NCBI GenBank assembly: GCA_964361705.1
Contig: CAYIBP010000004.1
Coordinates: forward strand, 1 to 59,998
Origin: an uncultured Candidatus Saccharibacteria bacterium
Lineage (GTDB): Bacteria > Patescibacteriota > Minisyncoccia > Phycocordibacterales > UBA9973
Direction: 5' to 3'
DNA length: 59,998 nt
The notes under the pieces: generated by a model
Databases searched by the model: none
What the model was told of the DNA's origin: nothing
The model's input: only the letters and a program-made list of their open reading frames with translations
Translations under genes and position numbers: made by a program
Shown here: one piece after another, positions 29,089 through 59,998 of the stretch
How positions within the stretch are numbered: the stretch's first letter is position 1
Layout: the number at the start of each line of letters is the position of its first letter

Positions 29089-29568
29089 ATGAAAAATGAA
29101 AAAATCACAATTTACACAGATGGGGCGGCGAAAGGAAATCCGGGGAAGGCTGGCTGGGCAGTAATTTTATTTATAGATAAAAAGGTTATTGAGCTTGGCG
29201 GATTTTCTCCTCACGCTACCAATAATCAGATGGAGCTAACCGCGCCTATAGAAGCATTGAAATATTTGCAAAAGAACATCGCTAGGCAAGGCCTAACGAC
29301 AAGAGAAATTGAAATTTTCTCAGATTCAAAATATGTGATTCTAGGTATAACCGAATGGATATTTAATTGGCAGAAGAATAATTGGCGAAATGCTGCAAAA
29401 AAACCTGTTTTAAACAAAGAACTCTGGCAAGAACTTTTTGATCTTACGCAAAATTTCAAAATAAAATGGAAATATGTAGAAGGGCATAGTGGAGATAAAT
29501 GGAACGAAAGAGCCGATGAAATAGCTACTAGCTTTGCGGATGGAGTATCGGTTGATTTATCAGCATGA
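29089..29568 (+). CDS. rnhA: Ribonuclease HI
   Basis: YTDGAAKGNPG, TNNQMEL, DSKYV and GHSGDKWNERAD. Confidence 0.96.
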   Translation: MKNEKITIYTDGAAKGNPGKAGWAVILFIDKKVIELGGFSPHATNNQMELTAPIEALKYLQKNIARQGLTTREIEIFSDSKYVILGITEWIFNWQKNNWRNAAKKPVLNKELWQELFDLTQNFKIKWKYVEGHSGDKWNERADEIATSFADGVSVDLSA

Positions 29569-31040
29569 AAGAAAAAATATTTTTTACGGTTTGTTTTGGC
29601 TTTATTTTTGGTGTGCTTGCGCGCTCTATGTTTTTTATTGATTTTCATCTGGCTTTATTTTTAAGCGTGATGTCTTTGGCGTTTCTTTTATTTTTTAAAT
29701 TTGTTTCCAAACATGATATTGGGATTTTGATTTCTGTTTTGATGTTACTTTTTTCTTTTGGTACCATCAGATTTCATTTCAGTAATATTGCGCCTCCTCT
29801 TTTGTTTGAAAGCAAACTTGATCAAGAAGTTGTGCTTATGGGTAAAATAATAGATGAGCCAGATATCAGAGAAAATAACAAAAAAGTTCTTTTTGAGGCA
29901 AAAGAAGATGGATATAAAGTTAGAGTTTTAATTACGGCGGATTTTGGTCTTGATTTGAGATACGGAGATGAGATAAAGGTCCGAGGAGTCTTAGAGAAAC
30001 CAGAAAATTTCATTACAGATCAAGGCAAAGAGTTTGATTATGTAAATTATTTGCGAAAGGACGAGATTTTCTATCTTATGAGATATGTGGATGTTGAGGT
30101 TTTATCAAGTGGGCACGGGAACTTTTTGAAGGTTTTTTTGTTTTCGATAAAGGAGAAATTTTCAAGCAAAATAAATCTTGCTGTCAGAGAACCTGAATCA
30201 TTGCTTTTGGGCGGGCTCATCTTAGGAGAAAAATCCGCCTTTAGTGATTCTTTGAGAAAAAACTTTGTGGATACTGGCACGATACACATCGTTTCTCTTT
30301 CTGGCTACAATATTACTATAATTGCCGAGTGGATAATGAAAGTCTTCTCTGTGTTTCCACAAACTTTTGCTATTGGAGCTGGGATTCTTTCTATTTTACT
30401 TTTTATTTTGATGACAGGCGGAGCTTCTACTGCTATTCGCGCGGGAATAATGGCAGTTTTAGCTTTGTACGCTCGCGCCTCTGGCAGGAATTATGATGTG
30501 GCGCGAGCGCTTTTGCTTGCGGGCGTGGTGATGACATTGATCAATCCATTTGTACTCTACTATGATGTGTCTTTCCAGCTTTCTTTCTTGGCTACTATTG
30601 CTGTGATATTTTTTGCGCCTAGAGTGGAGAAGTATTTTCAATGGATTACAAAGAGTTTCGGTCTGCGAGATATTATTTCTGTCACCAGCGCTGTGTATAT
30701 TTTTGTCCTACCTTTTATTTTGTACAAGATGGGTAATCTATCCCTTGTCGCCTTGCCTGCGAATATTTTTATATTGCCTTTTATTCCTATCACTATGGGT
30801 ATTGGATTCCTGACTGGTTTTGCAGGATTGTTCTCTTATTTTCTTTCTGTGCCGTTTGGATATTTATCATACCAACTGCTTCATTATGAGCTCGCTGTTG
30901 TTGATTTCTTTGCGCGTGTTCCATTTGCCTCTCTGTCTATCCCAGATTTTCCACTAGTTTTGACGGTTCTTATCTATGCTTGTTTTGCATACAAGCTTTT
31001 CGGAAGAGATATAAAAGAATCTTTTACTTCACCTCGTTAA
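29565..31040 (+). CDS. comEC: ComEC/Rec2 competence channel, membrane (N-terminal) part
   Basis: OB-like region followed by GTIHIVSLSGYNI, RAGIM and DVSFQLSFLAT. Confidence 0.92.
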   Translation: MKEKIFFTVCFGFIFGVLARSMFFIDFHLALFLSVMSLAFLLFFKFVSKHDIGILISVLMLLFSFGTIRFHFSNIAPPLLFESKLDQEVVLMGKIIDEPDIRENNKKVLFEAKEDGYKVRVLITADFGLDLRYGDEIKVRGVLEKPENFITDQGKEFDYVNYLRKDEIFYLMRYVDVEVLSSGHGNFLKVFLFSIKEKFSSKINLAVREPESLLLGGLILGEKSAFSDSLRKNFVDTGTIHIVSLSGYNITIIAEWIMKVFSVFPQTFAIGAGILSILLFILMTGGASTAIRAGIMAVLALYARASGRNYDVARALLLAGVVMTLINPFVLYYDVSFQLSFLATIAVIFFAPRVEKYFQWITKSFGLRDIISVTSAVYIFVLPFILYKMGNLSLVALPANIFILPFIPITMGIGFLTGFAGLFSYFLSVPFGYLSYQLLHYELAVVDFFARVPFASLSIPDFPLVLTVLIYACFAYKLFGRDIKESFTSPR

Positions 31041-31617
31041 AGTTTTCTTCAACAACTTCCCAATTCAGATTTTTAAAAAATGTTTCCACATATTTTTTCT
31101 TTTCGGAGGTTGGGTAGTCGTACACAAATGCATGTTCCCACATATCGAGCGCGAGGATAAGAGTGCAGTCTTGTAGTTGGCCTATATGCTGTTCGTCTAT
31201 CCAAGTCATCAGCAACCTTTTTTCTTTTCTGTCGTAGTAGAGCATTGCCCAGCCTATGCCTCGGGTGAGGGCTATGGATTTGAAACGATTGAGCCATGAA
31301 TCAAATGAGCCCCATTCTTCTGTAATCGCTTTTTTTAATTCATTCATCTCTGTAAGATCTTTTGGACCATTTTCAAGTGAAGAAAAATAAACTTCGTGAT
31401 TTCTCATACCATTGTATTCAAAACCAAATCTTCTTTGTACTTCGCCTAAAGCATAGGCATTCTTTTCCGCATCTTGCGCGAGCTCATTTATCTTTTCCAA
31501 TATTAAATTGCTATTTTTTACATAGCCCGCATAGAGTTTCAAGTGCTCCTCTATGTTTTTATTAGAAATGCCTTTTAATGTTCCAATATTAAACTTTTTT
31601 TCTTCAAATGTTTTCAT
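31024..31617 (-). CDS. sod: Fe/Mn superoxide dismutase
   Basis: EEHLKLY.GYV, NHEVYF, GSFDSW and DMWEHAFVYDY metal ligands. Confidence 0.92.
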   Translation of the reverse strand: MKTFEEKKFNIGTLKGISNKNIEEHLKLYAGYVKNSNLILEKINELAQDAEKNAYALGEVQRRFGFEYNGMRNHEVYFSSLENGPKDLTEMNELKKAITEEWGSFDSWLNRFKSIALTRGIGWAMLYYDRKEKRLLMTWIDEQHIGQLQDCTLILALDMWEHAFVYDYPTSEKKKYVETFFKNLNWEVVEENFNEVK

Positions 31618-31634
31618 ATGCTAGCATTATACCA

Positions 31635-34333: not shown

Positions 34334-35028
34334 AAAAAAAGAAAGGCAAACTCATAGTGATAGATGGTACAGATGGTTCTGGTAAACATACACAGGTCGA
34401 GCTTTTGGCGAAGACCCTGAGGGACGAAGGGTGGAGAATTAAGATTATAGATTTTCCTGAATATTACAAAAATTTTTTCGGAGCTTTTATTGGGCATTGT
34501 TTGTCAAAGCAGTATTACAATTGGGTCGGCGTGCATCCAAAGATTGCTTCTATCGCCTATGCGGCAGATCGTTTTGAATCAAGCAAAGATATTAGAAAGT
34601 TTTTGGATCAAGGTTACATTGTGATAGCCAATAGGTATGTTTCTGCAAATCAAATACATCAAGGAGGTAAAATAAAAAGCGCGAAAAAAAGAGAAGCATT
34701 TATAAAATGGCTGGATCAGATGGAGTATGGAGTTTTTGGTATACCGAAACCTGATGTTACTTTTTATTTGAGTTTGCCTATTGATATAGTGATGGATTTG
34801 ATAAAGAATCGCGAGAGTAGCAAGACGAAACGCGCGTATTTAAAAAAGAAAAAGGATATTTATGAAGCCGATATAGAATTTCAAAAAAATTCTATAAATA
34901 GTGCTCTCTGGCTTGTAAAAAAAGTTCCAAATTTTATAAAAATAGAATGTGCGGAAAAAGGGGAGATTCTGCCGAGAGAAGTGATACACGAAAAAATTTA
35001 CGAAAAGGTGAAGAAAGTTATAAAATAG
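34330..35028 (+). CDS. tmk: Thymidylate kinase
   Basis: DGTDGSGK.TQ P-loop, DRF, NRYVSAN.IHQG and PKPDVTFYL. Confidence 0.9.
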   Translation: MKKKKGKLIVIDGTDGSGKHTQVELLAKTLRDEGWRIKIIDFPEYYKNFFGAFIGHCLSKQYYNWVGVHPKIASIAYAADRFESSKDIRKFLDQGYIVIANRYVSANQIHQGGKIKSAKKREAFIKWLDQMEYGVFGIPKPDVTFYLSLPIDIVMDLIKNRESSKTKRAYLKKKKDIYEADIEFQKNSINSALWLVKKVPNFIKIECAEKGEILPREVIHEKIYEKVKKVIK

Positions 35029-35943: not shown

Positions 35944-37683
35944 ATGGAAATAAATTTTAAAATAAAAAATCTAATAAAAGAGGCGTTAAAAAATCTCGGC
36001 TTGGGAGAAGTGGATTTTGTGGTTGAACATCCAGCAGATTTGAAAATGGGGGATTATTCTACAAATGTGGCTATGGTTTTGGCGAAAGCTCAAAAGACAA
36101 ATCCAAAAGAATTGGCAGAAAAAATACTGCAGGAGATGTCAAAGAGTCTCTTTGACACTGATTCTGACATAGAGAGGGTGGTGTCCGCAGGAAATGGATT
36201 TATAAATTTCTATCTTTCGAAAGAATTTTTGCAAAATAGTGTTATCGCGATAGTGGATACAAAAAATCACAATGAAAATTTTGGACACAATGAAATTTTT
36301 GCCGGTAAAAAAGTGATGGTGGAATACACTGATCCGAATCCTTTCAAACCTTTTCACATAGGACACTTGATGACGAATGTTATAGGCGAATCCGTTTCCA
36401 GGTTTATAGCTTTTTCTGGGGGTGAAGTTTTACATGCAAATTATCAGGGAGATGTGGGGCTTCATGTAGCGAAAGCTATTTATGGACTTTTGAAAAAAGG
36501 AAAGCCAGAAAATGATCTTTCAATAAAAGAACAAGCAGAATATATAGGCAAATGTTATTCTTTTGGTTCGGGTGAATATGAAGAAAATGAAGGAGCGAAG
36601 AAAGAAATAGACGCAATAAATAAAAAAGTCTATGAAAAAAATGACGAGAGGATAAACGAACTTTATGATTGGGGGCGCAGGATTACACTTGAAGCTTTTG
36701 AAAAGATTTACGAGATGCTCGGCACAAAATTTGAATATTATTTTTTTGAATCAGAAATGGCGCCGATAGGCATGAAGATGGTAAAGGAAAATATCGGTAA
36801 AGTATTTGAAGAATCCGATGGCGCGATAGTTTTTAAAGCGGAAAAACATGATCCAAAACTTCATACTCGTGTATTTATAAACTCCCAAGGTTTGCCTACA
36901 TACGAGACAAAAGACATCGGACTAAATATTACAAAGTTTGAAAAAGAAAATCTTGATTTGTCTGTCATCGTCACTGCCAGTGAACAAGCCGACTATATGC
37001 GCGTGGTACAAAAAGCTCTGTCGTTTATCAAGCCTGAAGTAGAAAATAAGATGAGGCACATCACTCACGGAATGCTCCGTTTTGCCTCTGGCAAGATGAG
37101 TTCGCGTAAAGGCAATGTGGTGACTGGTGAGTCATTGATAAATGATGTCAGGCACATGGTGTATGAAAAGATTCGAGATAGAGGTTTTTCGGAAGATGAA
37201 AAGGAAAAGATCGCGACAGATGTCGGCGTGTCAGCCCTAAAGTTTTCCGTTTTAAAGCAAGCTTCCGGCGGAGACATTGTTTACGATTTTGATAAATCAA
37301 TATCTTTTGAAGGCGATTCAGGCCCGTATTTGCAATATGCTTACACGCGAGCGAAAGCAGTTTTTAAAAAAGCGCAGGCAGGAAATTTTGAAGCTAAGCT
37401 TCAAAATTTCCTGCCTGCCGAATTTCCAATAACTGAAGTAGAAAAACTTTTATACAGATTCCCCGAAGTGGTAGAAAGGAGCGCCAAAGAATTTGAACCT
37501 CACTATATGACGAATTATTTGATAGAGATAGCTCGCGCATTTAATTCATTTTATGGAAACAACAAAATAATAGATGAAAAAGATGCGAACTCTCCATACA
37601 AAGTCGCCATCTGCGAGGCATTTTCCGTAGTTATGAAAAACGGCCTCCATCTCCTCGGCATCTCTACGCCGGAGAAGATGTAG
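35944..37683 (+). CDS. argS: Arginine--tRNA ligase
   Basis: GDYSTN, EYTDPNPFKPFHIGH, ANYQGDVG, KMSSRKG and GPYLQYAYTR. Confidence 0.97.
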   Translation: MEINFKIKNLIKEALKNLGLGEVDFVVEHPADLKMGDYSTNVAMVLAKAQKTNPKELAEKILQEMSKSLFDTDSDIERVVSAGNGFINFYLSKEFLQNSVIAIVDTKNHNENFGHNEIFAGKKVMVEYTDPNPFKPFHIGHLMTNVIGESVSRFIAFSGGEVLHANYQGDVGLHVAKAIYGLLKKGKPENDLSIKEQAEYIGKCYSFGSGEYEENEGAKKEIDAINKKVYEKNDERINELYDWGRRITLEAFEKIYEMLGTKFEYYFFESEMAPIGMKMVKENIGKVFEESDGAIVFKAEKHDPKLHTRVFINSQGLPTYETKDIGLNITKFEKENLDLSVIVTASEQADYMRVVQKALSFIKPEVENKMRHITHGMLRFASGKMSSRKGNVVTGESLINDVRHMVYEKIRDRGFSEDEKEKIATDVGVSALKFSVLKQASGGDIVYDFDKSISFEGDSGPYLQYAYTRAKAVFKKAQAGNFEAKLQNFLPAEFPITEVEKLLYRFPEVVERSAKEFEPHYMTNYLIEIARAFNSFYGNNKIIDEKDANSPYKVAICEAFSVVMKNGLHLLGISTPEKM

Positions 37684-37717
37684 CTTTTTTGGTTTATTTT
37701 TGTTACATTGTTAATGT

Positions 37718-37948
37718 ATGAAAACACCGATGAGGCAGTTTACAGCATTATATAAGAAATCCGGCAGATGGTATGCTGGTTCTATTGAAGAGATTCCAGG
37801 GGTTAATACTCAGGGCAGGACATTAGCTGAAGTTAAAGAAAATCTCAAAGAAGCGCTTCTGCTTATTTTAGAAACCAATCGTTTTTTAGCCAACAAAGAC
37901 AAGAACACTTCATCTGTTACTAGGGAAGTTCTTTTTGTTCCGGCGTAG
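37718..37948 (+). CDS. hicB: HicB family antitoxin (short form)
   Basis: Y.G...EIPGVNTQG.TL.E..ENL.EAL.L pattern. Confidence 0.85.
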   Translation: MKTPMRQFTALYKKSGRWYAGSIEEIPGVNTQGRTLAEVKENLKEALLLILETNRFLANKDKNTSSVTREVLFVPA

Positions 37949-37952
37949 ACCT

Positions 37953-38147
37953 ATGAAACTTGTAGACCTGCTTAAACACCTTCGCAATAATAATTGTATT
38001 TTTGTGAGGGAGGGTGGTTCACATAGTGTCTGGTATAACACGATAACTGGCAGGACTTCTACCGTGCCAAGGCATATTGAAATAAATACTTATACTGGAA
38101 GAAAGATTTGTGAAGATTTGGGAATTCCAATAATCAAAAAGAAATAA
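37953..38147 (+). CDS. hicA: HicA family toxin
   Basis: VREGGSHSVWYN...TVPRH...T...IC..LG dsRBD-like HicA motif. Confidence 0.88.
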   Translation: MKLVDLLKHLRNNNCIFVREGGSHSVWYNTITGRTSTVPRHIEINTYTGRKICEDLGIPIIKKK

Positions 38148-38221
38148 AATCTCCGCTCCGGAGAGGATGTAGCGCCAAAATTTAGGGTGTTAAAACTCCA
38201 GAAATATGGTATAATTAGCTT

Positions 38222-38770
38222 ATGAAAAATGTTGATGAAATCAGCAAAGAGCGAGCCCTGAAACTTTTTGGTAGCTCTGAAATTGAGGTTTTTGAAGTTG
38301 GCACCACGAGGGGTTTGCAACAAATTCATGTCTATCTTTTTGATGGCCTTTATGATTTTGCCGGAGAAATTCGCAAAAAAGATTTAAGCAAAGGTGGTTT
38401 TCGTTTTGCATCTCATTTGTATTTGACTGAAAGTTTGGCGAAGGTGGAGAAAATGCCGGAGGATACATTTGAGGAAATTGTGGCTAAATATGTAGAGATG
38501 AATATAGTACATCCATTTATGGAGGGTAATGGTCGCAGTATGCGGATTTGGCTGGATTTGATTTTGAAAAAAAATCTGAAAAAATGTGTGGACTGGGCGA
38601 AGGTTGATAAAATGGATTATCTGAATGCTATGGGGCGTAGTCCAATAAATGATTTAGAAATTCGTGAGCTTTTGCGTGGCGCTTTGACTGATAAGACAGA
38701 CGATCGTGAAGTTTTTATGAAAGGCATTGAACAATCATACTATTACGAAGAAGTTGATTTGTATAAATGA
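38222..38770 (+). CDS. fic: Fic family protein adenylyltransferase, class III (self-inhibited)
   Basis: Canonical [12 protein letters not shown] motif and C-terminal [10 protein letters not shown] inhibitory-helix-like motif. Confidence 0.9.
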
Positions 38771-38815
38771 AATTGAAGCAGAAAATTCAATATTTAGTAT
38801 TGGGTGTACGAAAAC

Positions 38816-38844
38816 TTGACAAGACATTCTCTGTATGCTATACT
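38816..38844 (+). promoter_or_regulatory. Strong sigma70 promoter
   Basis: TTGACA, 17 bp, TGc-TATACT. Confidence 0.8.
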
Positions 38845-38974
38845 ATAAAAGTAAGTTAATTTTGTACCTTAAAAATTGTGGTTTTGACGAAAAAGTGTTT
38901 ATTTGTAAGGTTAAATGAATCTTTTTTCGTCTAAATCACACAGTTTCTTATCACATAACTCCAAAGGAGGAGCT

Positions 38975-39112
38975 ATGGGTTTTATCGTTGGAGTACTGGC
39001 ATTCCTTACGGTTTCGTATCTTTTCCCTGAAGCTCATCTTCTCCTTCGTTGCTTGGGGGGGCTTGGGCTTGGAGCCGTAGTAACTATTGCTGTGAAAGAA
39101 TTTCAAAAGTAA
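38975..39112 (+). CDS. Small hydrophobic protein (45 aa, two predicted TM segments)
   Basis: AAAGGAGGAGCT-ATG start, its own promoter and terminator, and higher GC than the flanks. Confidence 0.65.
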   Translation: MGFIVGVLAFLTVSYLFPEAHLLLRCLGGLGLGAVVTIAVKEFQK

Positions 39113-39132
39113 GAATATTCTTTCACAATTTG

Positions 39133-39174
39133 CAGCCCATGATTGATCAGAAATGATTGGTCGTGGGCTGTTGT
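39133..39174 (+). terminator. Terminator-like RNA hairpin
   Basis: 17-bp stem with four G-U pairs and a GAAA loop, followed by TTGT-ATTT. Confidence 0.65.
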
Positions 39175-39200
39175 ATTTATAGGAGGAATTTTTCTAGTTT

Positions 39201-40187
39201 ACTTTGAATTACGAAACTCCACAAGACCACTTTTCCCCAACCAAGCAAAATAACCTCAAGAGTCCTTGATTTTTAAAACGGAAGTTTAATTTTTCTTGTT
39301 AACAACTTTCTCTACCTAAGCACATAGGCGAGAATCGAATAAATGTAATTAGCAAAGTAACCATCAATAGATCTGGGAAACGAGGTTAGAAAAGCGTACA
39401 GCATTTTCAGATTTCTGAAGTTCAACTCAATCAGCATTCTGGTATTGTAGAGATGATACTGGAACTCAGTAATGATTTTCTTCATATTCTTTCTTGGCTT
39501 AGCAAACAGAATTCTTTTGTTTTCAATGTAGAATTCTTTTTCTAAATTTTCTGAAGAATATCCTGCGTCAGCCACAAATATACCATCAATATTTTTGTTC
39601 ATCTTCTGGAATGTTTTTCGATCATTCCCATTTGCAGAAGTAAATGAAATAGCTAAAACATTGCGATTTAAATCAGAGGTCAATGACATTTTAAGCCCAT
39701 AATAGAAGCCTTTTCCTGAATGTCCCCAAGAAGAGAGCATTTTCATAATTTTGTTGTGTCTGAAATTTTTGTTCAGACAAACCGGAATATCGGTGGAGTC
39801 GGTGTATTTAACTATATGAGCATTTTTCTGATTCCATTTTAGAATTGCGTTTAAGACCCTAAGCGCTTGCAATGCAAATCGATTCATCTGAATACAAAGT
39901 GTCTTGTAACATTCCTTAAGTTGGAATATCTCCCAGATTTTTTTCTTGGTGGGGATGCCAGTATTTTGTTTGAAGAGAGCGAGCGCGATTGTTTCTTCTC
40001 CAGAGATTGCCAATTTTCGACCAGTGCTTTTGCTTAATTTCAGTTGTAATTGTTTTGAGAAAAATTGAACTTTTGTTAATATGTCAGTATACAGTTGAAT
40101 GACTGTGTTCATAACAAAAAGCACCTCACGGCGCTTTTTGTATTTTAACCTATTTTAATTGAAAAGTGGAGTTTCGTAATTCAAAGT
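39201..40187 (-). mobile_element. Insertion sequence, IS982-like (987 bp)
   Basis: Perfect 22-bp terminal IRs ACTTTGAATTACGAAACTCCAC (39201-39222 and 40166-40187). Flanking direct repeat AGTTT, or TAGTTTA if the ends are drawn 1 bp inward. Confidence 0.88.
39312..40112 (-). CDS. DDE transposase, IS982-like
   Basis: DSTDIPVC, G.YYGLK, ADAGY and Y..R..IE..F..LK motifs; GAGGTG upstream of ATG 40112. Confidence 0.85.
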   Translation of the reverse strand: MNTVIQLYTDILTKVQFFSKQLQLKLSKSTGRKLAISGEETIALALFKQNTGIPTKKKIWEIFQLKECYKTLCIQMNRFALQALRVLNAILKWNQKNAHIVKYTDSTDIPVCLNKNFRHNKIMKMLSSWGHSGKGFYYGLKMSLTSDLNRNVLAISFTSANGNDRKTFQKMNKNIDGIFVADAGYSSENLEKEFYIENKRILFAKPRKNMKKIITEFQYHLYNTRMLIELNFRNLKMLYAFLTSFPRSIDGYFANYIYSILAYVLR

Positions 40188-40225
40188 AGTTTACTTTTCC
40201 ATATTTTTTAGTATTATATAAACAT

Positions 40226-40445
40226 AAGCGTTGAAGAGGCTATCACCTCAGAGCTTTTGGGAAGAAATACTTTGTTGATATAGCCCGCCTGCGCGCGAGG
40301 CTACGGCGAGGTAAAGTAGAACCCTATGAATTAAGTGTCTGCCCAGCGCAAGTTGGTTTGGGCGGAAATTAAGGTGGTACCGCGGGAGAGTCCCGTCCTT
40401 AGATAGTAATTTTTTAATTATTATTTTAGGACGGGATTTTTTATT
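40226..40445 (+). ncRNA. T-box riboswitch leader of ileS (Ile AUC specifier)
   Basis: GAGG-CUAUCA-CCUC mini stem I; GGAAGAA/AGUAGAACC stem II elements; AAGG-UGGUACC-GCGGGA antiterminator (40371-40400); alternative terminator at 40391-40436 plus U-run. Confidence 0.9.
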
Positions 40446-40523: not shown

Positions 40524-43500
40524 ATGCAAGAAAAAGAAGAAAACCACCGCCAAGGCGGGGTGAACACAAAATCAGAAGTAGCTCTGAGGGAAGAAAAGAT
40601 TATGTATTTTTGGCGCGAGCATAAGACTTTTGAAAAAAGTTTGGAAAAGGATTCGCCAAAGGGCAATTATGTTTTTTATGATGGACCGCCTTTTGCCACG
40701 GGACAGATGCATTATGGGCATATATTGGGCAGTACTGCCAAGGATGTCATCGGGCGGTATCAGACGATGCGTGGATATCATGTGCCTCGCAAGTGGGGTT
40801 GGGATTGTCATGGTTTGCCGATAGAAAATATTGTAGAGAAAGAGCTCGGCATCGCAGGACACAATGAGATAGAAAAATACGGCATAGACAAATTCGTGGA
40901 GTATGCGCGGAGCAAAGTTTTGGAATACGATGCGGATTGGCGAGTGGGCATAGAGCGCATAGGCAGATGGGTAGATTTTGATGGTGGGTACAAGACGATG
41001 GACAATGATTTCATTGAGTCTGTGTGGTGGGCGCTCGCGGAATTAAATAAAAAAGGTTTGATATACGAGGGCGTGCGAGTGCTGGCGTATTGCGCGAGAT
41101 GCGAGACGCCGATAGCAAACTCCGAAATAGCGATGGACAACAGCTACAAAGACATCGCTGATATTTCTGTGTATGTGAAGTTTGAGTTGGAAGATGAGTT
41201 TGGTACAGAAAGTCCCTCGCTTCGCTCGGGACGATCAAATACTTCGTATTTGATCGCGTGGACCACAACGCCGTGGACATTGCCGGGCAATACTGCCATA
41301 GCGGTGAATAAAGATATTGAATATGTGAAAGTGGAAGCTGATGGGGTGAATTATATTTTGGCAGAAGCAACATTAGGAAATGTTTTTAAAGAAAAAAGTT
41401 TCAAAATTTTGGAAAAATTCAAAGGTGATAAACTTGTCGGCAGAAAATACAAGCCGGTTTTTCCATATTATCTGGATGCCGACATGCCGAACAAAGAAAA
41501 TATTTACAAAGTCTGGCATGCGGATTTTGTGACGACAGATATGGGTACAGGGATAGCGCACGAGGCGCCGGCTTTTGGCGAAGACGATATGAACCTCGCT
41601 CGAGAACACAAAATACCTTGGATCATACATGTGGACGAGACGGGCAGATTTAAAAGCGAAGTAAAAGATTTCTCAGGTCTCAAAGTAAAACCAAAGGACA
41701 CTGCTGAAGACAAAGACATGCATCTGCGCTCTGATATAGAGGTCATAAAATATTTACAGGCAAATGGATCGTATTTTGCCAAAGAAAAAATAACACACTC
41801 ATATCCGCATTGTATGCGTTGTGATACGCCGATCATTTACTACGCGCTTCCGTCTTGGTTTGTGGATATACAAAAATCAAAACCGATAGTGCAAAAAACT
41901 GCCGAATTTATAAATTGGGTACCGGAGCACTTGAAAGAGGGCAGATATAAAAATATTGTAGATAGCGCGCCAGACTGGAATATCTCGCGCAATAGATATT
42001 GGGCTTCGCCTTTGCCTGTGTGGAAGTGTGACACTTGCGACAATCAAGAATTTATAAGCTCTCTGGAAGACTTAAAAGAAAAATCCGTAAAATCCGGCAA
42101 CAAATATTTCGTGATGCGACATGGGGAATCTGAAGGAAATATAACAGGCGTAATTAGTTCATACTCTGAGCACACAGATCATTTAACAGAATTGGGCAAG
42201 AAACAAGTATTTGAAACATCGCAAAAGTTAAAAGATAAAAATATAAATTTGATTATTTATTCTGATTTGGCTCGAACAAGAGAAACCGCCGAGATAATAA
42301 AAAAGGAACTCGGTATTCTGGATGAGAATTTTATTTCAACTAAAAAAATTAGGGAAATTTCCACTGGAGTTTGGGACGGAAAAAGATGGACTGAATATGT
42401 TGCTTTTATAAAGAACGAGGGAATGCAGAGGTATCTTTATCGCCCAGACAATGGTGAATCGGGAGAAGATGTAAAAGCCAGGATGGCTAGGTTTCTTTAT
42501 GAAATAGATAGCGAATATAGAGATAAAAATATTCTGATAATAACTCACGAAGGTCCAGCTAGGATACTTTATGTAGGTGCTCTCGGTTTGAGCTCTTCTC
42601 AAATGGAGGAGAAATTAAATAATAAAGAGATAATCGTTTTTAAAAATGCGGAAGTTAATGGGTTGAATTTTGTCCCATTTCCCCACAATGCAAACTTTGA
42701 GCTTGATATGCACAGGCCATATATAGACGCTGTAAAATTAAAATGTAAATGCGGTGGTGAGATGACGCGTATCACGGAGGTTTTGGATTGTTGGTTTGAG
42801 TCAGGGTCTATGACTTTTGCGGAGGATCATTATCCTTTTGAGAGTGCTGACTGGCAAGAAAAGAATTTCCCAGCTGGATTCGTGGCGGAATACATAGCGC
42901 AGACTCGTACGTGGTTTTATTATATGCATGTTGTTTCGGCTCTGCTTTTCAATCACGCGCCGTTTAAAAATGTCGTGACCACAGGCACCCTTCGCGCTGA
43001 AGACGGACAAAAGATGTCCAAGTCCAAGCACAATTATCCTGATCCGTGGGTTTTCATAGACAAATACGGCGTGGATGCTTTGCGTATATATCTGATGTCT
43101 TCACCACTGATGAAAGGCGAAGATGCGAATTTCTCTGAAAAGCTCGTGCAGGAAATATCTAGTAAGATTGTCGGCAGATTTCACAACACGATGCTTTTTT
43201 ATGAATTGTATCGAGATAAAAATCTAGAAGATGTTTTTGAAAAAGATTTAAAAAATGTTTTGAACAAATGGATAGTCGGCAGACTCGATGAAGTGATAAC
43301 AGAAGTGACAAAAGGCATGGAAGCGTACGATATGGCGATGGCTACTAGGCCGCTTGATCTGTTTGTGGACGATCTCTCTACTTGGTATTTGCGTAGATCA
43401 CGTGATGCCATCAAAGATGGTGATAAAGAAACAAAACAAACACTGTATTTCGTACTAAAAACTTTTGCCAGACTGATGGCTCCATTTGCGCCGTTTATAG

Positions 43501-44078
43501 CAGAAGAAGTTTGGAGAAATTTGCGCGGAGATACGGATGAGGAGAGCGTGCATTTGGTAGAATGGCCAGAGGCAGGTTCTCTCGTGTCAGATAAAAATAA
43601 AATAACGCAAGATATGGCAGATGCTAGGCGCATTGTGTCGCTAGGGCTTGAAGCTCGACAGAGAACGAATATAAAAGTCCGTCAGCCATTGTCAAAAATA
43701 AGCGTAAAGACGTATTCGCTCTCGCGAGAATACGAAGAACTTATAAAAGACGAGTTGAATGTCAAAGAATTAAAAGAAGATAAAAATTTGGAAAATGAAG
43801 TCCTGCTCGATACAGATATAACAGAAGAATTAAAACAAGAAGGCGACTATCGCGAGCTCTTGCGCGGTCTGCAAGATTTGCGAAAGAAACTCGGACTCAC
43901 ACCGAAAGACCTCGTCACCTTGTCCCTAGAATGCGATGATGCTGGTAAAAGACTTGTCTCAAAATACGAAGAGAATTTATTGAAAACTGTGCTTGTCTCA
44001 AAAGTAACTTACGAGAAAAATAACGGCGAAGAAATTCTCGTCGGCGAATTATCTTTTAAGGTGAAGATGGAGAAATAA
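40524..44078 (+). CDS. ileS: Isoleucine--tRNA ligase (type 2) with inserted histidine-phosphatase domain
   Basis: FYDGPPFATG.MHYGH, GWDCHGLP, WTTTPWTLPGN, DWNISRNRYW and KMSKS; insert with RHGE...SDLARTRETA...THEG. Confidence 0.95.
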   Translation: MQEKEENHRQGGVNTKSEVALREEKIMYFWREHKTFEKSLEKDSPKGNYVFYDGPPFATGQMHYGHILGSTAKDVIGRYQTMRGYHVPRKWGWDCHGLPIENIVEKELGIAGHNEIEKYGIDKFVEYARSKVLEYDADWRVGIERIGRWVDFDGGYKTMDNDFIESVWWALAELNKKGLIYEGVRVLAYCARCETPIANSEIAMDNSYKDIADISVYVKFELEDEFGTESPSLRSGRSNTSYLIAWTTTPWTLPGNTAIAVNKDIEYVKVEADGVNYILAEATLGNVFKEKSFKILEKFKGDKLVGRKYKPVFPYYLDADMPNKENIYKVWHADFVTTDMGTGIAHEAPAFGEDDMNLAREHKIPWIIHVDETGRFKSEVKDFSGLKVKPKDTAEDKDMHLRSDIEVIKYLQANGSYFAKEKITHSYPHCMRCDTPIIYYALPSWFVDIQKSKPIVQKTAEFINWVPEHLKEGRYKNIVDSAPDWNISRNRYWASPLPVWKCDTCDNQEFISSLEDLKEKSVKSGNKYFVMRHGESEGNITGVISSYSEHTDHLTELGKKQVFETSQKLKDKNINLIIYSDLARTRETAEIIKKELGILDENFISTKKIREISTGVWDGKRWTEYVAFIKNEGMQRYLYRPDNGESGEDVKARMARFLYEIDSEYRDKNILIITHEGPARILYVGALGLSSSQMEEKLNNKEIIVFKNAEVNGLNFVPFPHNANFELDMHRPYIDAVKLKCKCGGEMTRITEVLDCWFESGSMTFAEDHYPFESADWQEKNFPAGFVAEYIAQTRTWFYYMHVVSALLFNHAPFKNVVTTGTLRAEDGQKMSKSKHNYPDPWVFIDKYGVDALRIYLMSSPLMKGEDANFSEKLVQEISSKIVGRFHNTMLFYELYRDKNLEDVFEKDLKNVLNKWIVGRLDEVITEVTKGMEAYDMAMATRPLDLFVDDLSTWYLRRSRDAIKDGDKETKQTLYFVLKTFARLMAPFAPFIAEEVWRNLRGDTDEESVHLVEWPEAGSLVSDKNKITQDMADARRIVSLGLEARQRTNIKVRQPLSKISVKTYSLSREYEELIKDELNVKELKEDKNLENEVLLDTDITEELKQEGDYRELLRGLQDLRKKLGLTPKDLVTLSLECDDAGKRLVSKYEENLLKTVLVSKVTYEKNNGEEILVGELSFKVKMEK

Positions 44079-51731: not shown

Positions 51732-53191
51732 AAAAAGATAGCTTTTATATTACCACCACACTGCCTTATGTAAACGCTCCACTTCATATGGGGCATGCGC
51801 TAGAATTTGTGCGCGCAGATGCGATAGTTCGCTACAAGAAACTTTTAGGGTTTGATGTGTTTTTCAATACTGGTACAGATGAGCACGGAATAAAGATTTA
51901 CAACAAGGCAAAGGAGCAGGGTCTAGATCCGCAGGAGTTTGTGGATAGGGGTTTTGAGATTTTTAAAGAACAGCTCAAGATGTTTGGTATCAGTGAAGAC
52001 GTGCATTTTGTGCGTACGACGGACACGCATCACATCGAAGCTGCGCAGGAATTTTGGAAACGCGTAGATAAGAATGGATATATCTATAAAAAAAACTACG
52101 AGGCAAAGTATTGCGTGGGTTGCGAGAGTGAAAAGACAGACAGCGAGCTAGACGAAGCAGGTGAATGCCCACTGCACCCCGGACGCAAACCCGAAACTAT
52201 CAGTGAAGAGAATTATTTCTTCAAATATTCAGCTTTTAGCGAGAAACTTTTAGAGTTTTATAAAAAGAATCCGACATTTATCGTGCCTGATTTTCGTTTC
52301 AATGAAATTAAAAATTTCGTAAAAAACGGCTTGCAGGATTTTTCTATATCAAGGTTGAAAAGCAAAATGCCTTGGGGTGTGGGTGTGCCAGGGGACGATG
52401 AACATGTGATGTACGTGTGGTTTGATGCGCTTACGAATTATATTTCTACCTTGGGTTGGCCCTTTGCTGACGCTCAGGGTAAACCAGAAGAAAGTTCTTT
52501 TGAAAAATATTGGATAAATGGTAATCCTACTCAATACTGTGGCAAAGACAATACACGTTTCCAAGGTGCTATGTGGCAGGCGATGTTGATGGCATCTGGG
52601 CTACCGAATTCACACCAGATAGTGGTAAATGGTTTTATCACCGGTGAGGGCGGAATACGAATGTCTAAAACTATAGGCAATGTCGTGGATCCGCGCGATG
52701 TCGTAGCCCTATACGGCACAGACGCTCTGCGATATTTTCTACTTCGAGAAATTAGTAGTTTTGAAGACGGTCCTTTTACACTTGAACGATTCAAAGATGC
52801 TTATAATTCCGGCCTTGCAAATGGGCTGGGGAATCTGTCTTCGAGGATTTTAACTTTATCGGAAAAACATCTGGAAAGGACGCCTGAGATCCCAGAGAAC
52901 ACAATACCCCAAGAATTTTTTGAATATTTAGAAAAGTTTGATCTGCAAAAAGCGACAGAATTCATCTGGAGCAAGATAACAGAGCTAGACAAAAGAATCC
53001 AAGAGACCGAACCGTTCAAGATCATAAAGTTCGATGAAGCTAAAGGCAAAGAAATGATAAAAAATTTAGTTTTGGATTTGTACACCATAGCCAGAATGTT
53101 AAATCCACTTCTACCCGAAACTTTCGAAAAAATAAAAAATTTAATAAAACAAAACAAAAAACCCGAAGACCCGCTTTTTTTGCGAAAATAA
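51728..53191 (+). CDS. metG: Methionine--tRNA ligase
   Basis: YITTTLPYVNAPLHMGH, TGTDEHG, YVWFDAL, RMSKTIG and DALRYFLL. Confidence 0.96.
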   Translation: MKKDSFYITTTLPYVNAPLHMGHALEFVRADAIVRYKKLLGFDVFFNTGTDEHGIKIYNKAKEQGLDPQEFVDRGFEIFKEQLKMFGISEDVHFVRTTDTHHIEAAQEFWKRVDKNGYIYKKNYEAKYCVGCESEKTDSELDEAGECPLHPGRKPETISEENYFFKYSAFSEKLLEFYKKNPTFIVPDFRFNEIKNFVKNGLQDFSISRLKSKMPWGVGVPGDDEHVMYVWFDALTNYISTLGWPFADAQGKPEESSFEKYWINGNPTQYCGKDNTRFQGAMWQAMLMASGLPNSHQIVVNGFITGEGGIRMSKTIGNVVDPRDVVALYGTDALRYFLLREISSFEDGPFTLERFKDAYNSGLANGLGNLSSRILTLSEKHLERTPEIPENTIPQEFFEYLEKFDLQKATEFIWSKITELDKRIQETEPFKIIKFDEAKGKEMIKNLVLDLYTIARMLNPLLPETFEKIKNLIKQNKKPEDPLFLRK

Positions 53192-53192
53192 T

Positions 53193-54152
53193 ATGTATGA
53201 AAGAGTAACAAATTTTAATATAAAGAAAGGAGAAAAACAACCAAATGATTTCGATAGCTTTTTTCAAAAGTCTTCATTTGGAAAAGCAATCAATAAAGAA
53301 ATTAACAGGAAAGGAAGAGATGATACAGGGGTTTTTTTTGATAAGAGTTTAGAAAAAAGATTAACAGAAAAAGAAAAACAAGAATTAATTAATACTATAA
53401 AACAAATTTTTTCTTTACTTGAAAAATTACTACCAGATTTTTTAGAAGAGCTGGGTTTAAGCACAGAATATTTTGAGGCTATGCCTAAGCTTGGTATTGA
53501 AATCAAAAATTCATTTCTCTCCAATCTTTTTAAAGAAGGTTATCATATTCCAGTTTTTGACAAGTTGATTTTATCTGAAAAGATAATTAACAGCAAGTTC
53601 TTTTTTAGGACATTGATCCATGAATTTTCTCATAGTATATGTAAAAGCGTTATTAAATATTCGCCAGATTTTAAAAGGACAATTATGCAGACGGGTTTAT
53701 CTATAAGAATGACCGAAGGTAAACCGGATAAAAGATTGGGTCATACAGAAACTGTAAACGAAGGCATGACTGATATTTTTGCGAACAGATTATATTTATA
53801 TTTAATTGAAAAAGATCCGTCTTTGTTTGAAAAATATAATCAACCGAAGACTTATGAGCCTGGGTACAAAGAGGAAGTTCAATTTATTGAAAGAATGGCA
53901 GTTTTGATTTCTAGTGAAAATGAACCATATGAACAAGTTTTAAAAGAACTGATGCAACATTATTTGGATGGTAATGCTGGTTTGTTTTACAAAAAACTCT
54001 TTTTGAAGTTTAATCCAGATGATAAGAAAAGAATTTTAAAACTTTTAAATAAATCCAATTTTAGGAATATGTCTCTTTTTTCATCTAAAAAGATAATGTT
54101 TAGAAAAATTCATAAGGCAATTGATTCAATTACACAGGGTAGCCCTGTGTAA
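53193..54152 (+). CDS. Putative zinc metallopeptidase (HExxH...NEGxT, gluzincin-like)
   Basis: TLIHEFSH, with a downstream VNEGMTD third-ligand motif. Confidence 0.6.
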   Translation: MYERVTNFNIKKGEKQPNDFDSFFQKSSFGKAINKEINRKGRDDTGVFFDKSLEKRLTEKEKQELINTIKQIFSLLEKLLPDFLEELGLSTEYFEAMPKLGIEIKNSFLSNLFKEGYHIPVFDKLILSEKIINSKFFFRTLIHEFSHSICKSVIKYSPDFKRTIMQTGLSIRMTEGKPDKRLGHTETVNEGMTDIFANRLYLYLIEKDPSLFEKYNQPKTYEPGYKEEVQFIERMAVLISSENEPYEQVLKELMQHYLDGNAGLFYKKLFLKFNPDDKKRILKLLNKSNFRNMSLFSSKKIMFRKIHKAIDSITQGSPV

Positions 54153-54157
54153 TTTAC

Positions 54158-54328
54158 ATAAAAACTGACGAAACCAAAGGCAGGGAAATGATAAAAAATT
54201 TAGTTTTGGATTTGTACACCATAGCCAGAATGTTAAATCCACTTCTACCCGAAACTTTCGAAAAAATAAAAAATTTAATAAAACAAAACAAAAAACCAGC
54301 GACACCTTTGTTTTTAAGGAAAGAATAA
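54158..54328 (+). pseudogene. Duplicated 3' end of metG (56 codons)
   Basis: The 113-bp core at 54185-54297 is identical to 53051-53163. Flanks are homologous but diverged (IKTDETKGRE vs IKFDEAKGKE; KPATPLFLRKE vs KPEDPLFLRK). Confidence 0.88.
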
Positions 54329-57175: not shown

Positions 57176-57757
57176 CTACACCCTCTCCACATATTCGCCA
57201 GTTTCGGTGTTGATGCGGATGCTGTCGCCTTCGCTTATGAACATAGGCGCGTTTAGGGAATAGCCGTTTTCTAGAACTATCATTTTGTTGCCACCTTTTG
57301 AAGTGTCTCCGCGCACGGCAGGGGGAGCCTCTTTTACTTTAAACTCCATTTTGATAGGTAGCTCTACCTTTATTATTCTTTCTACTTCATCCTCATCGGT
57401 CCAGACTAGCGCGTTGACAAGGCCGTTGTCTTTCAAGAATTTTCCTTTTTCACCTATGATACTCGCCTCGAGCTTGAATCTGTTTTTTGGATCTTCTGGA
57501 GGGCAGAACCAGTATTCGCCTTTATTGTGGTATAGGAATTTTGTTTCTTTTTTTTCTATACCTGCTTCATCTGCGCTGTCTGACACATGAAATGTAGCCG
57601 CTACGGTCTTGCCAGAAATAAGACTTTTTAATTTTACCTGATTTTGAGGTTTGCGTTGCTGGGTTCTGGCTACATGTGAGTCTATGACTTCATAAGGTTC
57701 GCCGTCATGAATGATAATCTTTTTTTCGCGTATTTCATTGTATTGAAGTTGTGACAT
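57176..57757 (-). CDS. efp: Elongation factor P
   Basis: KOW/OB architecture, PPAVRGDT..GG.K...LENG....P.FI.EGD.IRINT..GEYVER. Start set to MSQLQYNE. Confidence 0.93.
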   Translation of the reverse strand: MSQLQYNEIREKKIIIHDGEPYEVIDSHVARTQQRKPQNQVKLKSLISGKTVAATFHVSDSADEAGIEKKETKFLYHNKGEYWFCPPEDPKNRFKLEASIIGEKGKFLKDNGLVNALVWTDEDEVERIIKVELPIKMEFKVKEAPPAVRGDTSKGGNKMIVLENGYSLNAPMFISEGDSIRINTETGEYVERV

Positions 57758-57917
57758 AGCAAGTATATTAGCCCAAAAATGTGTTTTAGGCAACCTTTCA
57801 ACACCCACTAGGCAAGACCTCGTGGGTAACACCTTCAACTATTGCTTTTTTAGTCAGGATTTGGTATAATATATAAGTAACAATAAATCAAGGATATTTC
57901 ATGTTATCCTGAAAATC

Positions 57918-59998
57918 ATGCAAAAATCGTTTAGATTGCGTACTTCGGTCACATTTTTAATAATAATCTCAATGCTCCTGCCATCAGTCGGTCCTGTTTT
58001 AGCGCAGGAAGAAGTAAATGAACCTATCGCTAGGCAAGACCTAGTAATTGATTCTGCTCCTTCTGATACAGAAGATACTGCAGTAGATGAAAGTAATACA
58101 GAAACCGATGTCCCTAAAGAATCAGAAGATACTACTACTTCTGATCCAGCCTCTACTCTGGCTCCCGTACAGCCAAAGATTGATACAAAGATCCGTCCAG
58201 AAGTAGATGAGACTACAGGCGCTTTGCGGTATTCATATCCGATTGAAATTCCACAAGGCAGATCTGGCATGACTCCAAATTTGTCCTTGAATTACAATTC
58301 TGAAAACAAGGATAATCAGTCTGCATTCGGTTACGGTTGGGATTTATCCATCCCCCACATAAGTCGTATAAACAAACATGGAACAAATGAACTTCACGAT
58401 AGATATGATTTTGTTTCTTCTATAGATGGAGAGTTGGAAAAAGTAAATGATACTACATATAGAGCGAAAATAGAAAATGGTAGTTTCAATCAATACACAT
58501 TCATAGACAACGTCTGGACTCTAAAAACCAAAGACGGTCAGACGTATATCTTTGGAGACAATACTTCTAGCAGACAAGATGATACGACACAAGAAAAAAT
58601 ATATAAATGGATGCTCTCCAGAGAATTGGACGCAAATGAAAACATCATTAAATATTCATATTTCAAAGATCAAGGGCAGATATATCCTGAAAAGATTGCG
58701 TATACTTTAAGTTCAACAATAGGTGGGAAATTCGAGGTTGAGTTTGTGAGAGAAGGGAGGACAGACACCATAGAATCATACTCTACGGCTTTTTCTGTGA
58801 AAACAAATTACAGAGTGAACGAAATACAGGCGAAGATAAATGGAACGCAGAGCAGAAAATACATTCTTGATTACACAGTCGGAGACAATGGAGTGAGGTC
58901 TGTACTTTCTGGTATCACTAAATCAGCAGTCAGCGAGTCAGGCATTATCACGACTTTGCCGAGGATGGGGTTTGAGTATAGTAAAAGTGGTTCTACTATT
59001 TATGGTGACACAACCAGACTGAATACGGATGAATTGTATGCTTCAAGTGATATGAATGGACTTGTTGCAGGAGATATAAATGGAGATGCGTATCCTGATA
59101 TGCTAAAAGCTTACGAATATAACTGTTATAATTACTTTTTAAGTAAAAAAACATTTTTATTTAATCCTACTCTGAATCTGTTCCAGGAAAGTCCTACATA
59201 TTTAGTACCAGAAAGTATCATCAACCTTACTCGTTTTTGCTATAGTAAACTTTACGGAGGTACTAGGATTTTAGATGTGAATAGTGATGGTATGGGAGAT
59301 CTTATGAGGACCCCTAACTCTAATTCAAACCCAGCGAGAGAGATAAACAATGGTGATTCTTGGATCCAAGATGCTAAAGGAGATTATCGCGTGGACTACA
59401 ATTTAAATACCTCGTGGTCTTTACATTCACAAGATCTAAATGGAGATGGATTGATAGATTATATACAAGATTCTCCAGACAATGTGAGTGGATGGAACAC
59501 AACGACTTCTATGAACGACGGTTTTGGTTTTGAATACGTATCAAATATTAAACATCATGGAGCAGGGACTAAACCATATTCTTACACCCCAGTTTTTACC
59601 GGAAAGAATGATCATGCCGTGTTTGATATAAATGGTGACAACTTGCCGGATATCGTGGAATCTACAGAGAGGATTTGTTGTGGTTGGAATTCTACTGTCA
59701 CTATGATTCAAAATGTATATATCAATAAAGGGGACTCTTGGTATCTTGATCCATCTTATGTACTCCCAAGAGGATTGATTTTCTATTCAATTAATGCGAG
59801 TGGTGAGTCTAACCAACCTTTTGATATATCTGATTTTAATAATGATGGCTTGAATGATATCTTCAACAGAGAAAATATATACATTAATCAAGGGAAAAGT
59901 TTTATTCCTTATCTTATGAGGCCAAGTTTGCAAGGTGATCTGGGTTCTGCCCGAAATTGCTCGTGTCAAAATCCATATTTCTTGTTTGATATAAATGC
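57918..59998 (+). CDS. Partial (3' truncated) secreted SpvB/TcB-N plus FG-GAP-repeat protein, probable Rhs/YD-repeat polymorphic toxin
   Basis: Absent from the ORF track because there is no stop in the window; open for at least 693 codons by hand translation. Signal peptide (…PVLA|QEE); TGALRYSYPIEIP.GR.G.TP.LSL.YNS...G.GW; five D.N.DG/D..D repeats; promoter TTGCTT-17bp-TGgTATAAT (57842-57870). Confidence 0.85.
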   Translation, partial: MQKSFRLRTSVTFLIIISMLLPSVGPVLAQEEVNEPIARQDLVIDSAPSDTEDTAVDESNTETDVPKESEDTTTSDPASTLAPVQPKIDTKIRPEVDETTGALRYSYPIEIPQGRSGMTPNLSLNYNSENKDNQSAFGYGWDLSIPHISRINKHGTNELHDRYDFVSSIDGELEKVNDTTYRAKIENGSFNQYTFIDNVWTLKTKDGQTYIFGDNTSSRQDDTTQEKIYKWMLSRELDANENIIKYSYFKDQGQIYPEKIAYTLSSTIGGKFEVEFVREGRTDTIESYSTAFSVKTNYRVNEIQAKINGTQSRKYILDYTVGDNGVRSVLSGITKSAVSESGIITTLPRMGFEYSKSGSTIYGDTTRLNTDELYASSDMNGLVAGDINGDAYPDMLKAYEYNCYNYFLSKKTFLFNPTLNLFQESPTYLVPESIINLTRFCYSKLYGGTRILDVNSDGMGDLMRTPNSNSNPAREINNGDSWIQDAKGDYRVDYNLNTSWSLHSQDLNGDGLIDYIQDSPDNVSGWNTTTSMNDGFGFEYVSNIKHHGAGTKPYSYTPVFTGKNDHAVFDINGDNLPDIVESTERICCGWNSTVTMIQNVYINKGDSWYLDPSYVLPRGLIFYSINASGESNQPFDISDFNNDGLNDIFNRENIYINQGKSFIPYLMRPSLQGDLGSARNCSCQNPYFLFDIN

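Follow-up and report, generated by a model that had tools for sequence, protein, structure and literature searches.

The window analysed here is a 59,998-nt stretch of contig CAYIBP010000004.1 (GenBank assembly GCA_964361705.1; GC content 38%), and our subject is a set of short palindromes that lie in frame in its housekeeping genes, recur between genes and, in related genomes, flank a candidate transposase of the type associated with repetitive extragenic palindromes (REPs). Judged by its sequence, the organism is a Nomurabacteria-like Patescibacterium with metagenome-assembled genomes (MAGs) of Nomurabacteria/Paceibacteria as nearest relatives; the best GTDB representative shares 63-71% amino-acid identity with it (ArgRS, IleRS). 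The gene content is ordinary for the candidate phyla radiation (CPR): RNase Y, ClpP, trigger factor, NusA, type IV pilus genes and ComEC; RecJ, RNase HI (rnhA), SHMT, ArgRS (argS), IleRS (ileS, with a T-box leader in front), ProRS and MetRS (metG); and TatD, S6, SSB, EF-P and a secreted SpvB/FG-GAP (Rhs-like) protein. Among syntenic relatives, the closest is a JGI groundwater contig (L020) that spans rnhA to proS and encodes an ArgRS 77% identical to that of the window. Orthologues were compared in codon alignments of the window with L020 and in alignments with 10-120 further homologues; a scan of JGI metagenomes with argS yielded distant relatives only. The same organism is represented by two independent assemblies from Hainich groundwater, one from ENA (L022) and one from Logan (L023), which are 99.98-100% identical to the window over 6.6 and 13.1 kb; the window too probably comes from this groundwater (sample H52; ERZ1292617 / ERR3858113). 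The argS palindromes are present in both assemblies, and L022, the only one reaching ileS, also contains the ileS hairpins, so the palindromes are not assembly artefacts; in-frame hairpins in dozens of unrelated MAGs exclude that explanation as well.

All palindromic sequences quoted in a first-pass annotation of this DNA are present where it placed them. That annotation had proposed that palindromes are inserted in frame into protein loops and have sister copies between genes, in the manner of Rickettsia palindromic elements (RPEs), and both the arrangement and the analogy hold for the rnhA hairpin that encodes an RQ[GD]L peptide (Table 1). This hairpin matches the pattern CGYTAGGCAAGRCCTARCG, which we call family a. 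The related core CTAGGCAAGACCT occurs where efp (minus strand) and the SpvB/FG-GAP gene, which starts at 57918, diverge, and again inside the SpvB/FG-GAP gene, where the copy has 17 of 18 nt in common with that in rnhA. These are the three family a copies of the 60-kb window. Somewhat degenerate, they represent a palindromic, REP-like repeat about 19-27 nt long, in which a variable, complementary lower stem carries the conserved apex GGCAAG(A/G)CC. The rnhA insert occupies the link between helix A and strand 4 of RNase HI, where solved RNase HI structures show a gap of 7-8 residues. An AlphaFold model (mean predicted local distance difference test score, pLDDT, of 91) places it between helix 45-63 and strand 73-78 as the block of lowest pLDDT. 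Its 19-mer is identical to a copy in a different gene of a relative (L191), its core GCTAGGCAAGGCCT is shared with L020 (CARQGL), and the same position is taken by a hairpin of this type in L020 and in about 17 of 76 homologous loci.

Family a extends well beyond the window. In 1.29 Mb of related loci, AGGCAAGNCCT has 20 matches, and at about 15 of these the complementarity extends into the flanks. They come in three settings: as hairpins between genes, bordered by A and T runs in the manner of terminators; in a stem of the T-box leader in front of ileS (L001, L003 and L004); and, as TGCGTTAGGCAAGACCTAACGCA, at an in-frame position in argS of L006, encoding CVRQDLTQ. A GTDB scan with CGYTAGGCAAGRCCTARCG returned at least 119 stretches, nearly all in Nomurabacteria/Paceibacteria MAGs, against a rough estimate of about 35 chance matches to the 19-mer pattern across all phyla. 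Counts per genome, which are lower bounds, reach at least seven in the MAG CALRDL01 and several in others. The count by coding and intergenic position and the frame bias, proposed as checks in the first-pass annotation, could be obtained in the relatives, the window offering 60 kb and three copies. Family a has at least 138 copies; among those listed, 73 are intergenic and 57 (57/138, ~41%) lie in open reading frames (ORFs) of at least 150 amino acids, 55 in sense and 2 in antisense orientation (p = 2e-14). Between genes the two strands are used without bias (15:11), and each orientation of the hairpin has exactly one open frame. Strand-specific insertion is therefore ruled out as the cause of the 55:2 bias, and the better reading is that selection favours the hydrophilic VRQDLT-type peptide against VRSCLT. 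Unlike intrinsic terminators, the coding copies of the window are not followed by a T run, which is present after some intergenic relatives (L027, L005, L012, L249 and L250). Partial tandem duplications of the arms (CVRQGLTQEGLTQE, ...CCTAACGCAAcctaacgc) point to slippage at the hairpins.

In ComEC of several relatives, two opposite family a hairpins stand in frame about 23 nt apart, forming a REPIN-like doublet within a gene (L126:3108-3160, L159:7460-7495, L163:2582-2620, L166:4837-4872 and L174:4880-4915). The conserved apex was also considered as a DNA uptake sequence. Uptake sequences occur at densities far above three copies per 60 kb, and this candidate was rejected because the copies are far too sparse.

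A Y1-type or REP-associated tyrosine transposase (RAYT) with matching hairpins, which the first-pass annotation had named as the partner to look for, is found in related genomes. At 11 or more related loci, two inverted family a copies 700-740 nt apart bracket a conserved ORF of 217-223 amino acids, each hairpin lying about 22-26 nt outside it. The ORF matches Pfam Y1_Tnp at 27-36 bits (cut-off 23) and the NCBIfam model for REP-associated tyrosine transposases with an E value of 5.6e-10, and its HUH (NHFH) and YxHxNP (Tyr) motifs are invariant. The best profile match in the PDB is E. coli TnpA-REP (4ER8), reached by the profile search alone; phmmer with the transposase against the PDB gave no match. 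Clades of the transposase go with hairpin subfamilies (TGCGTTAGG, TCCGCTAGG and ATCGTTAGG), and other hairpin families, family e (below) among them, flank its more distant homologues (35-47% identity). Inverted hairpins around a gene of HUH/Y1 (RAYT) type constitute REPtron architecture, the layout of REP/RAYT systems in Proteobacteria such as E. coli and Pseudomonas (PMC3733652, PMC3116915; structure 4ER8).

The loop of RNase HI that holds the window's hairpin turns over between hairpin families. Across 120 homologous proteins, 76 loci with DNA were available; the loop is short, AT-rich and unstructured in 26 of these and longer in 50. Among the longer loops, 58% have a perfect stem of at least 7 bp and 56% are significant at p<=0.01 against their own shuffles, compared with a significant stem in 1 of the 26 short loops. 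At least six different hairpin families occupy the site across the 76 genomes: family a (GGCAAGRCC, encoding RQ[DG]L); family b (ATGTCAAAG..CTTTGACAT, encoding MSKxxFD, the same palindrome as at argS 36137 in the window); family c (CCTGCCTGCGCAGGCAGG); family e (GCAAGG..CCTTGC); family f (ACGCCATGGCGT); and a further CCTC-type family of ~50 nt. An identical 23-mer is present in argS of L006 and in rnhA of L104, L106 and L149. Nearest neighbours in an rnhA+ComEC alignment share a loop type in 42% of cases versus 21% by chance, and genomes 11-12% apart (for example L120 and L140, at 11%) differ in the family they carry while the flanking sequence remains ~90% identical. A census of loop sequences found no single dominant loop, and the idea of one stable cap everywhere was dropped.

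The ~50-nt family is a nested palindrome (consensus about GACCCCTACCCAACCTCCCCCTTAGTAAGGGGGAGG..GGGGGTC) that is multicopy in relatives (L020:499-555; L035:7509-7581 and 7917-7989; L081:7456-7561, 8463-8568 and 9378-9483; L133:1350-1418) and has no copy in the window. It lies in frame in rnhA of L020 and L133 and carries Shine-Dalgarno-like and anti-Shine-Dalgarno-like runs.

The argS palindrome encoding MSKSLFDT, listed in the first-pass annotation as one of several families, proved to be recurrent and is probably a second such hairpin family. The family b palindrome and its peptide occur in the rnhA loop of 8 of the 76 genomes and in another ORF of L106, and argS of L020 has a decayed copy. 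Its site in the window is a variable loop where the net insertion amounts to only 0-3 amino acids. The two most striking palindromes of the window, the 45-mer of argS (37374) and the perfect hairpin at ileS 41232-41256, had been missed. In L020 the 45-mer persists as a 19+19 hairpin whose stem differs by two double changes, both compensatory, and by none that is uncompensated; the changes in the left arm alter amino acids (G/E swaps), and their partners in the right arm are synonymous. Relatives with <=69% identity lack it. In the argS loop, two close pairs of genomes, L003/L004 and L011/L012, each have a 12-nt, hairpin-completing insert, CAAGGCTTCGGT, in one member (L004:10196 and L011:10207), making ACCGAAG-CAAGG-CTTCGGT, a distribution that requires recurrent gain, recurrent precise loss or recombination.

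In ileS, both inserts are GC-rich and hairpin-forming, in the style of the others. The idea that they belong to in-frame families was right in that both are true insertions (7 and 13 amino acids), absent from L020 and all other homologues aligned (10 in the case of the insertion at 41208), but no sister of either was found. The insertion at 40545 has a GC content of 0.67 (z -3.6), and at 41208 solved IleRS structures have a gap. In the perfect hairpin that abuts the second insertion's own imperfect one, the left arm belongs to the insertion and the right arm consists of conserved YLIA codons. The metG insert is likewise a true insertion, but ancient: FADAQGKPEES is common to many relatives and its hairpin has decayed. 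Between TLGWP and FEKYW lies a hot spot for insertions, with ~4 residues in most homologues and unrelated inserts of 6-30 amino acids in roughly a third; several long inserts fold into strong hairpins, and better-kept ones are found in L024 (CTCAGGGTAAACCTGAG) and L069 (GGGCAAGCCC). The claim that coding copies fall where homologues have a shorter loop is therefore borne out for rnhA, both ileS sites and metG, and in structures for RNase HI and IleRS, but is weak for argS 36137. The supposed in-frame insert at a 'peptidase end' did not survive: the hairpin at 54128 spans a stop codon at a cassette junction, and the label has no support, as the ORF ending at 54152 has no Pfam match.

Palindromes are in excess in the window as a whole. 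Against dinucleotide shuffles, there are 13 perfect hairpins with stems of at least 9 bp where 2.6 are expected and 11 with stems of at least 10 bp where 0.9 are expected, and 19 GC-rich 13-mers occur repeatedly where 4.8 are expected. The individual sites differ in quality: those at argS 36137 and 54128 are perfect, those in rnhA and at ileS 41212 imperfect, and that in metG weak, and the 5-bp stem at ileS 40545 and the metG pairing are each within chance. A scan for GC-rich islands found 99 in the window, mostly ordinary coding sequence, and was too unspecific to be of use. Indels between close genome pairs were aligned with MAFFT, as gapped blastn high-scoring segment pairs break at gaps. 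Across 13 genes orthologous between the window and L020, every one of the five indels that measure at least 6 amino acids is a GC-rich hairpin (0.54-0.67); the window has two of these and L020 three, among the latter a copy of the ~50-nt family inserted in rnhA.

Chance products of codon usage and composition in variable loops rich in Ala, Gly, Pro and Ser are a most improbable source of these palindromes, being already contradicted for families a and b by the enrichment over shuffles, the extended complementary flanks in about 15 of 20 apex matches and the 138 or more lineage-restricted copies of the 19-mer pattern, and could account only for the weakest individual items such as the ileS 5-bp stem and the metG pairing, even granting that the GC-rich islands are mostly ordinary coding sequence and that most indels are not hairpins.

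We consider it likely that the palindromes stem from REP/RAYT-like repeat families with RPE-like in-frame insertions, with template switching as a second process. The putative transposase would recognise the folded single-stranded hairpin and spread copies of it, and insertions may land anywhere. In genes, only copies in an open frame, in the orientation encoding the hydrophilic xxRQ(D/G)Lxx, and in tolerant surface loops would survive; the same loops (rnhA helix A-strand 4, metG GWP|FEKYW and argS) would consequently be hit repeatedly, with fast turnover. Template switching between the arms could in turn perfect and maintain palindromes, and would account for the 45-nt argS palindrome, the deoxynucleoside kinase (dNK) palindrome and the ileS arm copied from its flank.

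Several observations weigh against the spread of hairpins by a RAYT-like transposase. The NCBIfam score falls short of the model's cut-off, and 4ER8 is a weak match (E 0.099). For families b and c and the ~50-nt family, no link to a transposase was found. Copies of family a read CGTTAGG or CGCTAGG, and on neither strand does the consensus contain the GTAG/CGTC tag of described REPs. No target-site signature was found; direct repeats are not evident beside filled sites, and empty/filled pairs are too diverged for exact junctions. The three family a copies of the window have mismatched stems and may be relics, and that in rnhA, shared with L020, predates the split from it and is not recent. Neither ileS hairpin has a sister in 1.7 Mb of related DNA. 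Among 34 lineage-specific insertions in metG, argS and ileS, six have a stem that beats their own shuffles at p<=0.05, which rules out that all indels are hairpins. Finally, Pfam scans and tblastn found no RAYT homologue in the 60-kb window, whose sole transposase is of the DDE type. Of the earlier statement that palindrome families are mobile in this genome, what holds is that family a is real and RAYT-linked in relatives; mobility in this genome itself is inferred from the distribution of copies.

Nor does mobility explain every palindrome; some are better explained by template switching. Compared with L020, the palindromes at dNK 34872, ileS 41232-41256 and argS 37374-37418 show one-arm clustered or inserted changes or paired changes, as products of template switching do. 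On a wider scale, among hairpins with an 8-bp stem and a 4-nt centre in 1.7 Mb of related loci, 35% of the intergenic and 18% of the coding ones are spacer-less palindromes, symmetric through the centre, versus ~7% expected, an excess that points to a symmetric process at the DNA level. The centres of spacer-less terminator-like palindromes include CCATGG, AATT, CGATCG and GATATC.

It is unlikely, on the other hand, that local intra-strand template switching (quasi-palindrome correction and fold-back copying of flanks) produced and preserved the palindromes with no mobile element at all. The process is documented in bacteria (PMC5941160, PMC8794818) and fits the left arm at ileS 41232-41256, an inverted copy of the conserved right flank; the substitution cluster confined to one arm of the dNK palindrome; the paired changes of the argS 45-mer; the inserts of L004 and L011, each a loop plus an inverted flank copy; and the excess of spacer-less palindromes. 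It cannot explain identical hairpins of 19-23 nt at unrelated loci in many genomes, a conserved apex on variable stems, or a transposase flanked by inverted copies.

Less probable still is that the hairpins are selected RNA or DNA structures serving processing, pausing or termination, whose recurrent sequences are convergent stable caps. A hairpin at the same rnhA site in most genomes, the same apex in the stem of a T-box leader, where one pair has changed with compensation, its presence in terminator-like intergenic hairpins and the compensated 45-mer would suit such a role. Yet the rnhA loop is short and unstructured in 26 of 76 genomes, unrelated hairpins replace each other among close relatives, and copies decay (metG of the window, L120); the association with a transposase points to spread rather than local function, and we know of no stable tetraloop that corresponds to the family a apex.

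The preferred explanation, REP/RAYT-like families with RPE-like insertion, joins two kinds of repeat usually treated apart: REPs mobilised by RAYTs and in-frame Rickettsia RPEs. As in REP/RAYT systems, short imperfect palindromes are dispersed in the genomes of the relatives, where a Y1/HUH gene lies between inverted copies, each transposase clade has its own hairpin family and intergenic copies are terminator-like. Intragenic REPs are on record for several species (PMC3733652). Here, however, the host belongs to the CPR/Patescibacteria, ~41% of the sampled family a copies are inside ORFs rather than extragenic, different families repeatedly hit the same protein loops, GTTAGG or GCTAGG stands in place of the GTAG/CGTC tag, and the transposase is longer (~220 amino acids) and bears only a weak resemblance to that of E. 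coli. In Rickettsia, RPEs are inserted into genes in frame, and a review names no transposase for them (PMC10969869). Palindromic repeats in frame in unrelated housekeeping genes at fold-compatible sites, the coexistence of several families and reduced genomes are common to both. RPEs are about 100-150 bp and encode a conserved peptide of 30-50 amino acids, whereas the elements described here measure 19-57 nt and add 4-19; a RAYT-like candidate gene is linked here, the lineage is another, and the likeness is one of description.

Other systems share single features. SPRITE and terminator-like repeats and miniature inverted-repeat transposable elements (PMC10969869, PMC2229807) also have repeated intergenic copies with A and T runs, resembling rho-independent terminators, but in our case the whole element is the hairpin, with no terminal inverted repeats around an internal segment and no target-site duplication seen. 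Yeast mitochondrial GC clusters (PMC4478555) are GC-rich hairpins in AT-rich genomes, sometimes in coding sequence, and Nematomorpha mitochondria have perfect palindromes that are translated (PMC6649704); both belong to eukaryote organelles, with unrelated sequences and no RAYT link. Quasi-palindrome correction (PMC5941160, PMC8794818, PMC8604942) would account for the homogenised arms, the paired changes and the perfect AT-rich palindromes in coding sequence (34872, 37374 and 41232), but it is a mutational process, not an element, and leaves dispersed identical copies unexplained. Full-text searches of the literature gave no report of such elements in Patescibacteria/CPR.

Genomes of CPR/Patescibacteria are small, and mobile DNA is usually described as scarce in them. 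Our results point to a lineage-wide REP/RAYT-like system that repeatedly remodels the same loops of essential enzymes and whose hairpins stand in genes about as often as between them, and they suggest a testable enzyme-substrate pair. Such a system may explain many odd GC-rich insertions in CPR protein alignments; annotation and phylogenetics should treat xxRQDLxx, MSKxxFD and SPLL..G(E/R) as repeat-derived, not as homologous characters. A bolder extension, which we regard as doubtful, is that REP/RAYT hairpins act as interchangeable cassettes that continually rewrite a small set of surface loops in RNase HI, MetRS, ArgRS, IleRS and ComEC in streamlined, competence-proficient CPR, that loop alleles are swapped between species by recombination across conserved flanks, and that intragenic hairpins are possibly co-opted as mRNA signals. 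If true, protein loops would regularly be diversified by a selfish repeat, in a phylum believed to carry few mobile elements.

Table 1. Palindromes and neighbouring features of the window, in order of position.
Feature	Coordinates	Strand	Description
Intergenic palindrome	17664..17700	.	Bidirectional, terminator-like; centre CCGCC-CTTG-GCGG, resembling the ileS 40545 insert
rnhA hairpin, family a	29280..29298	+	CGCTAGGCAAGGCCTAACG, apex GGCAAGGCC; 7/8 stem pairs; in frame, encodes IARQGLT
dNK palindrome	34872..34896	+	AT-rich, perfect, 10-bp arms; clustered one-arm substitutions, no insertion
argS palindrome, family b	36137..36157	+	TGTCAAAGAGTCTCTTTGACA (ATGTCAAAG..CTTTGACA); perfect 10+1+10, 10-bp arms; in frame, encodes MSKSLFDT
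argS 45-nt palindrome	37374..37418	+	Perfect, 22-nt arms; linker before the anticodon-binding domain; encodes AQAGNFEAKLQNFLPA
Segment between argS and ileS	37700-40130		HicB/HicA, Fic-domain gene, DDE transposase
DDE transposase	39312-40124	-	
T-box leader upstream of ileS	40222-40403		Rfam RF00230, 57 bits, E 5e-12; gathering score 93
IleRS	40524-44078		
ileS hairpin	40545..40568	+	CCACCGCCAAGGCGGGGTG; GC-rich, in a 21-nt (7-amino-acid) insertion near the N-terminus; CCGCCAAGGCGG at 40547-40558, 5-bp stem
ileS second insertion and hairpins	41208..41256	+	39-nt (13-amino-acid) insertion 41208-41246, just before WTTTPWTLP; GTCCCTCGCTTCGCTCGGGAC at 41212-41232, imperfect, 7/9 pairs; 41232-41256, perfect, 11-bp arms
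metG insertion	52460..52495	+	Old, FADAQGKPEES; loop between TLGWP and FEKYW; hairpin decayed; CCCTTTGCTGACGCTCAGGG at 52460-52479, weak pairing
metG 3' end and its duplicate	53023-53193, 54157-54327		Core of ~117 nt 100% identical
ORF	53193-54152		319 amino acids, no Pfam family
Hairpin at ORF end	54128..54154	.	AATTACACAGGGTAGCCCTGTGTAATT; 12-bp stem, spans the stop codon of ORF 53193-54152; terminator-like
Intergenic copy, family a	57804..57826	.	CCCACTAGGCAAGACCTCGTGGG; stem with one T-C mismatch; CTAGGCAAGACCT at 57808-57820
SpvB/FG-GAP copy, family a	58026..58044	+	ATCGCTAGGCAAGACCTAG; in frame in the N-terminal linker, encodes IARQDLV; CTAGGCAAGACCT at 58030-58042

Apart from the palindromes, the segment between argS and ileS is absent from the syntenic L020 and is therefore a small inserted island. 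The T-box leader that follows it scores under its gathering threshold, and no Rfam family matches the window at gathering thresholds. Among solved structures, the IleRS of the window is closest to the eukaryote-type (cytoplasmic) enzyme.

The 3' end of metG is duplicated, and the two copies bracket the ORF at 53193-54152 together with the hairpin at 54128-54154; the duplicated end and the ORF look like a cassette recently inserted at the end of metG. Downstream of metG in relatives (L081, L035, L042 and L062) lie arrays of small ORFs separated by palindromic repeats.

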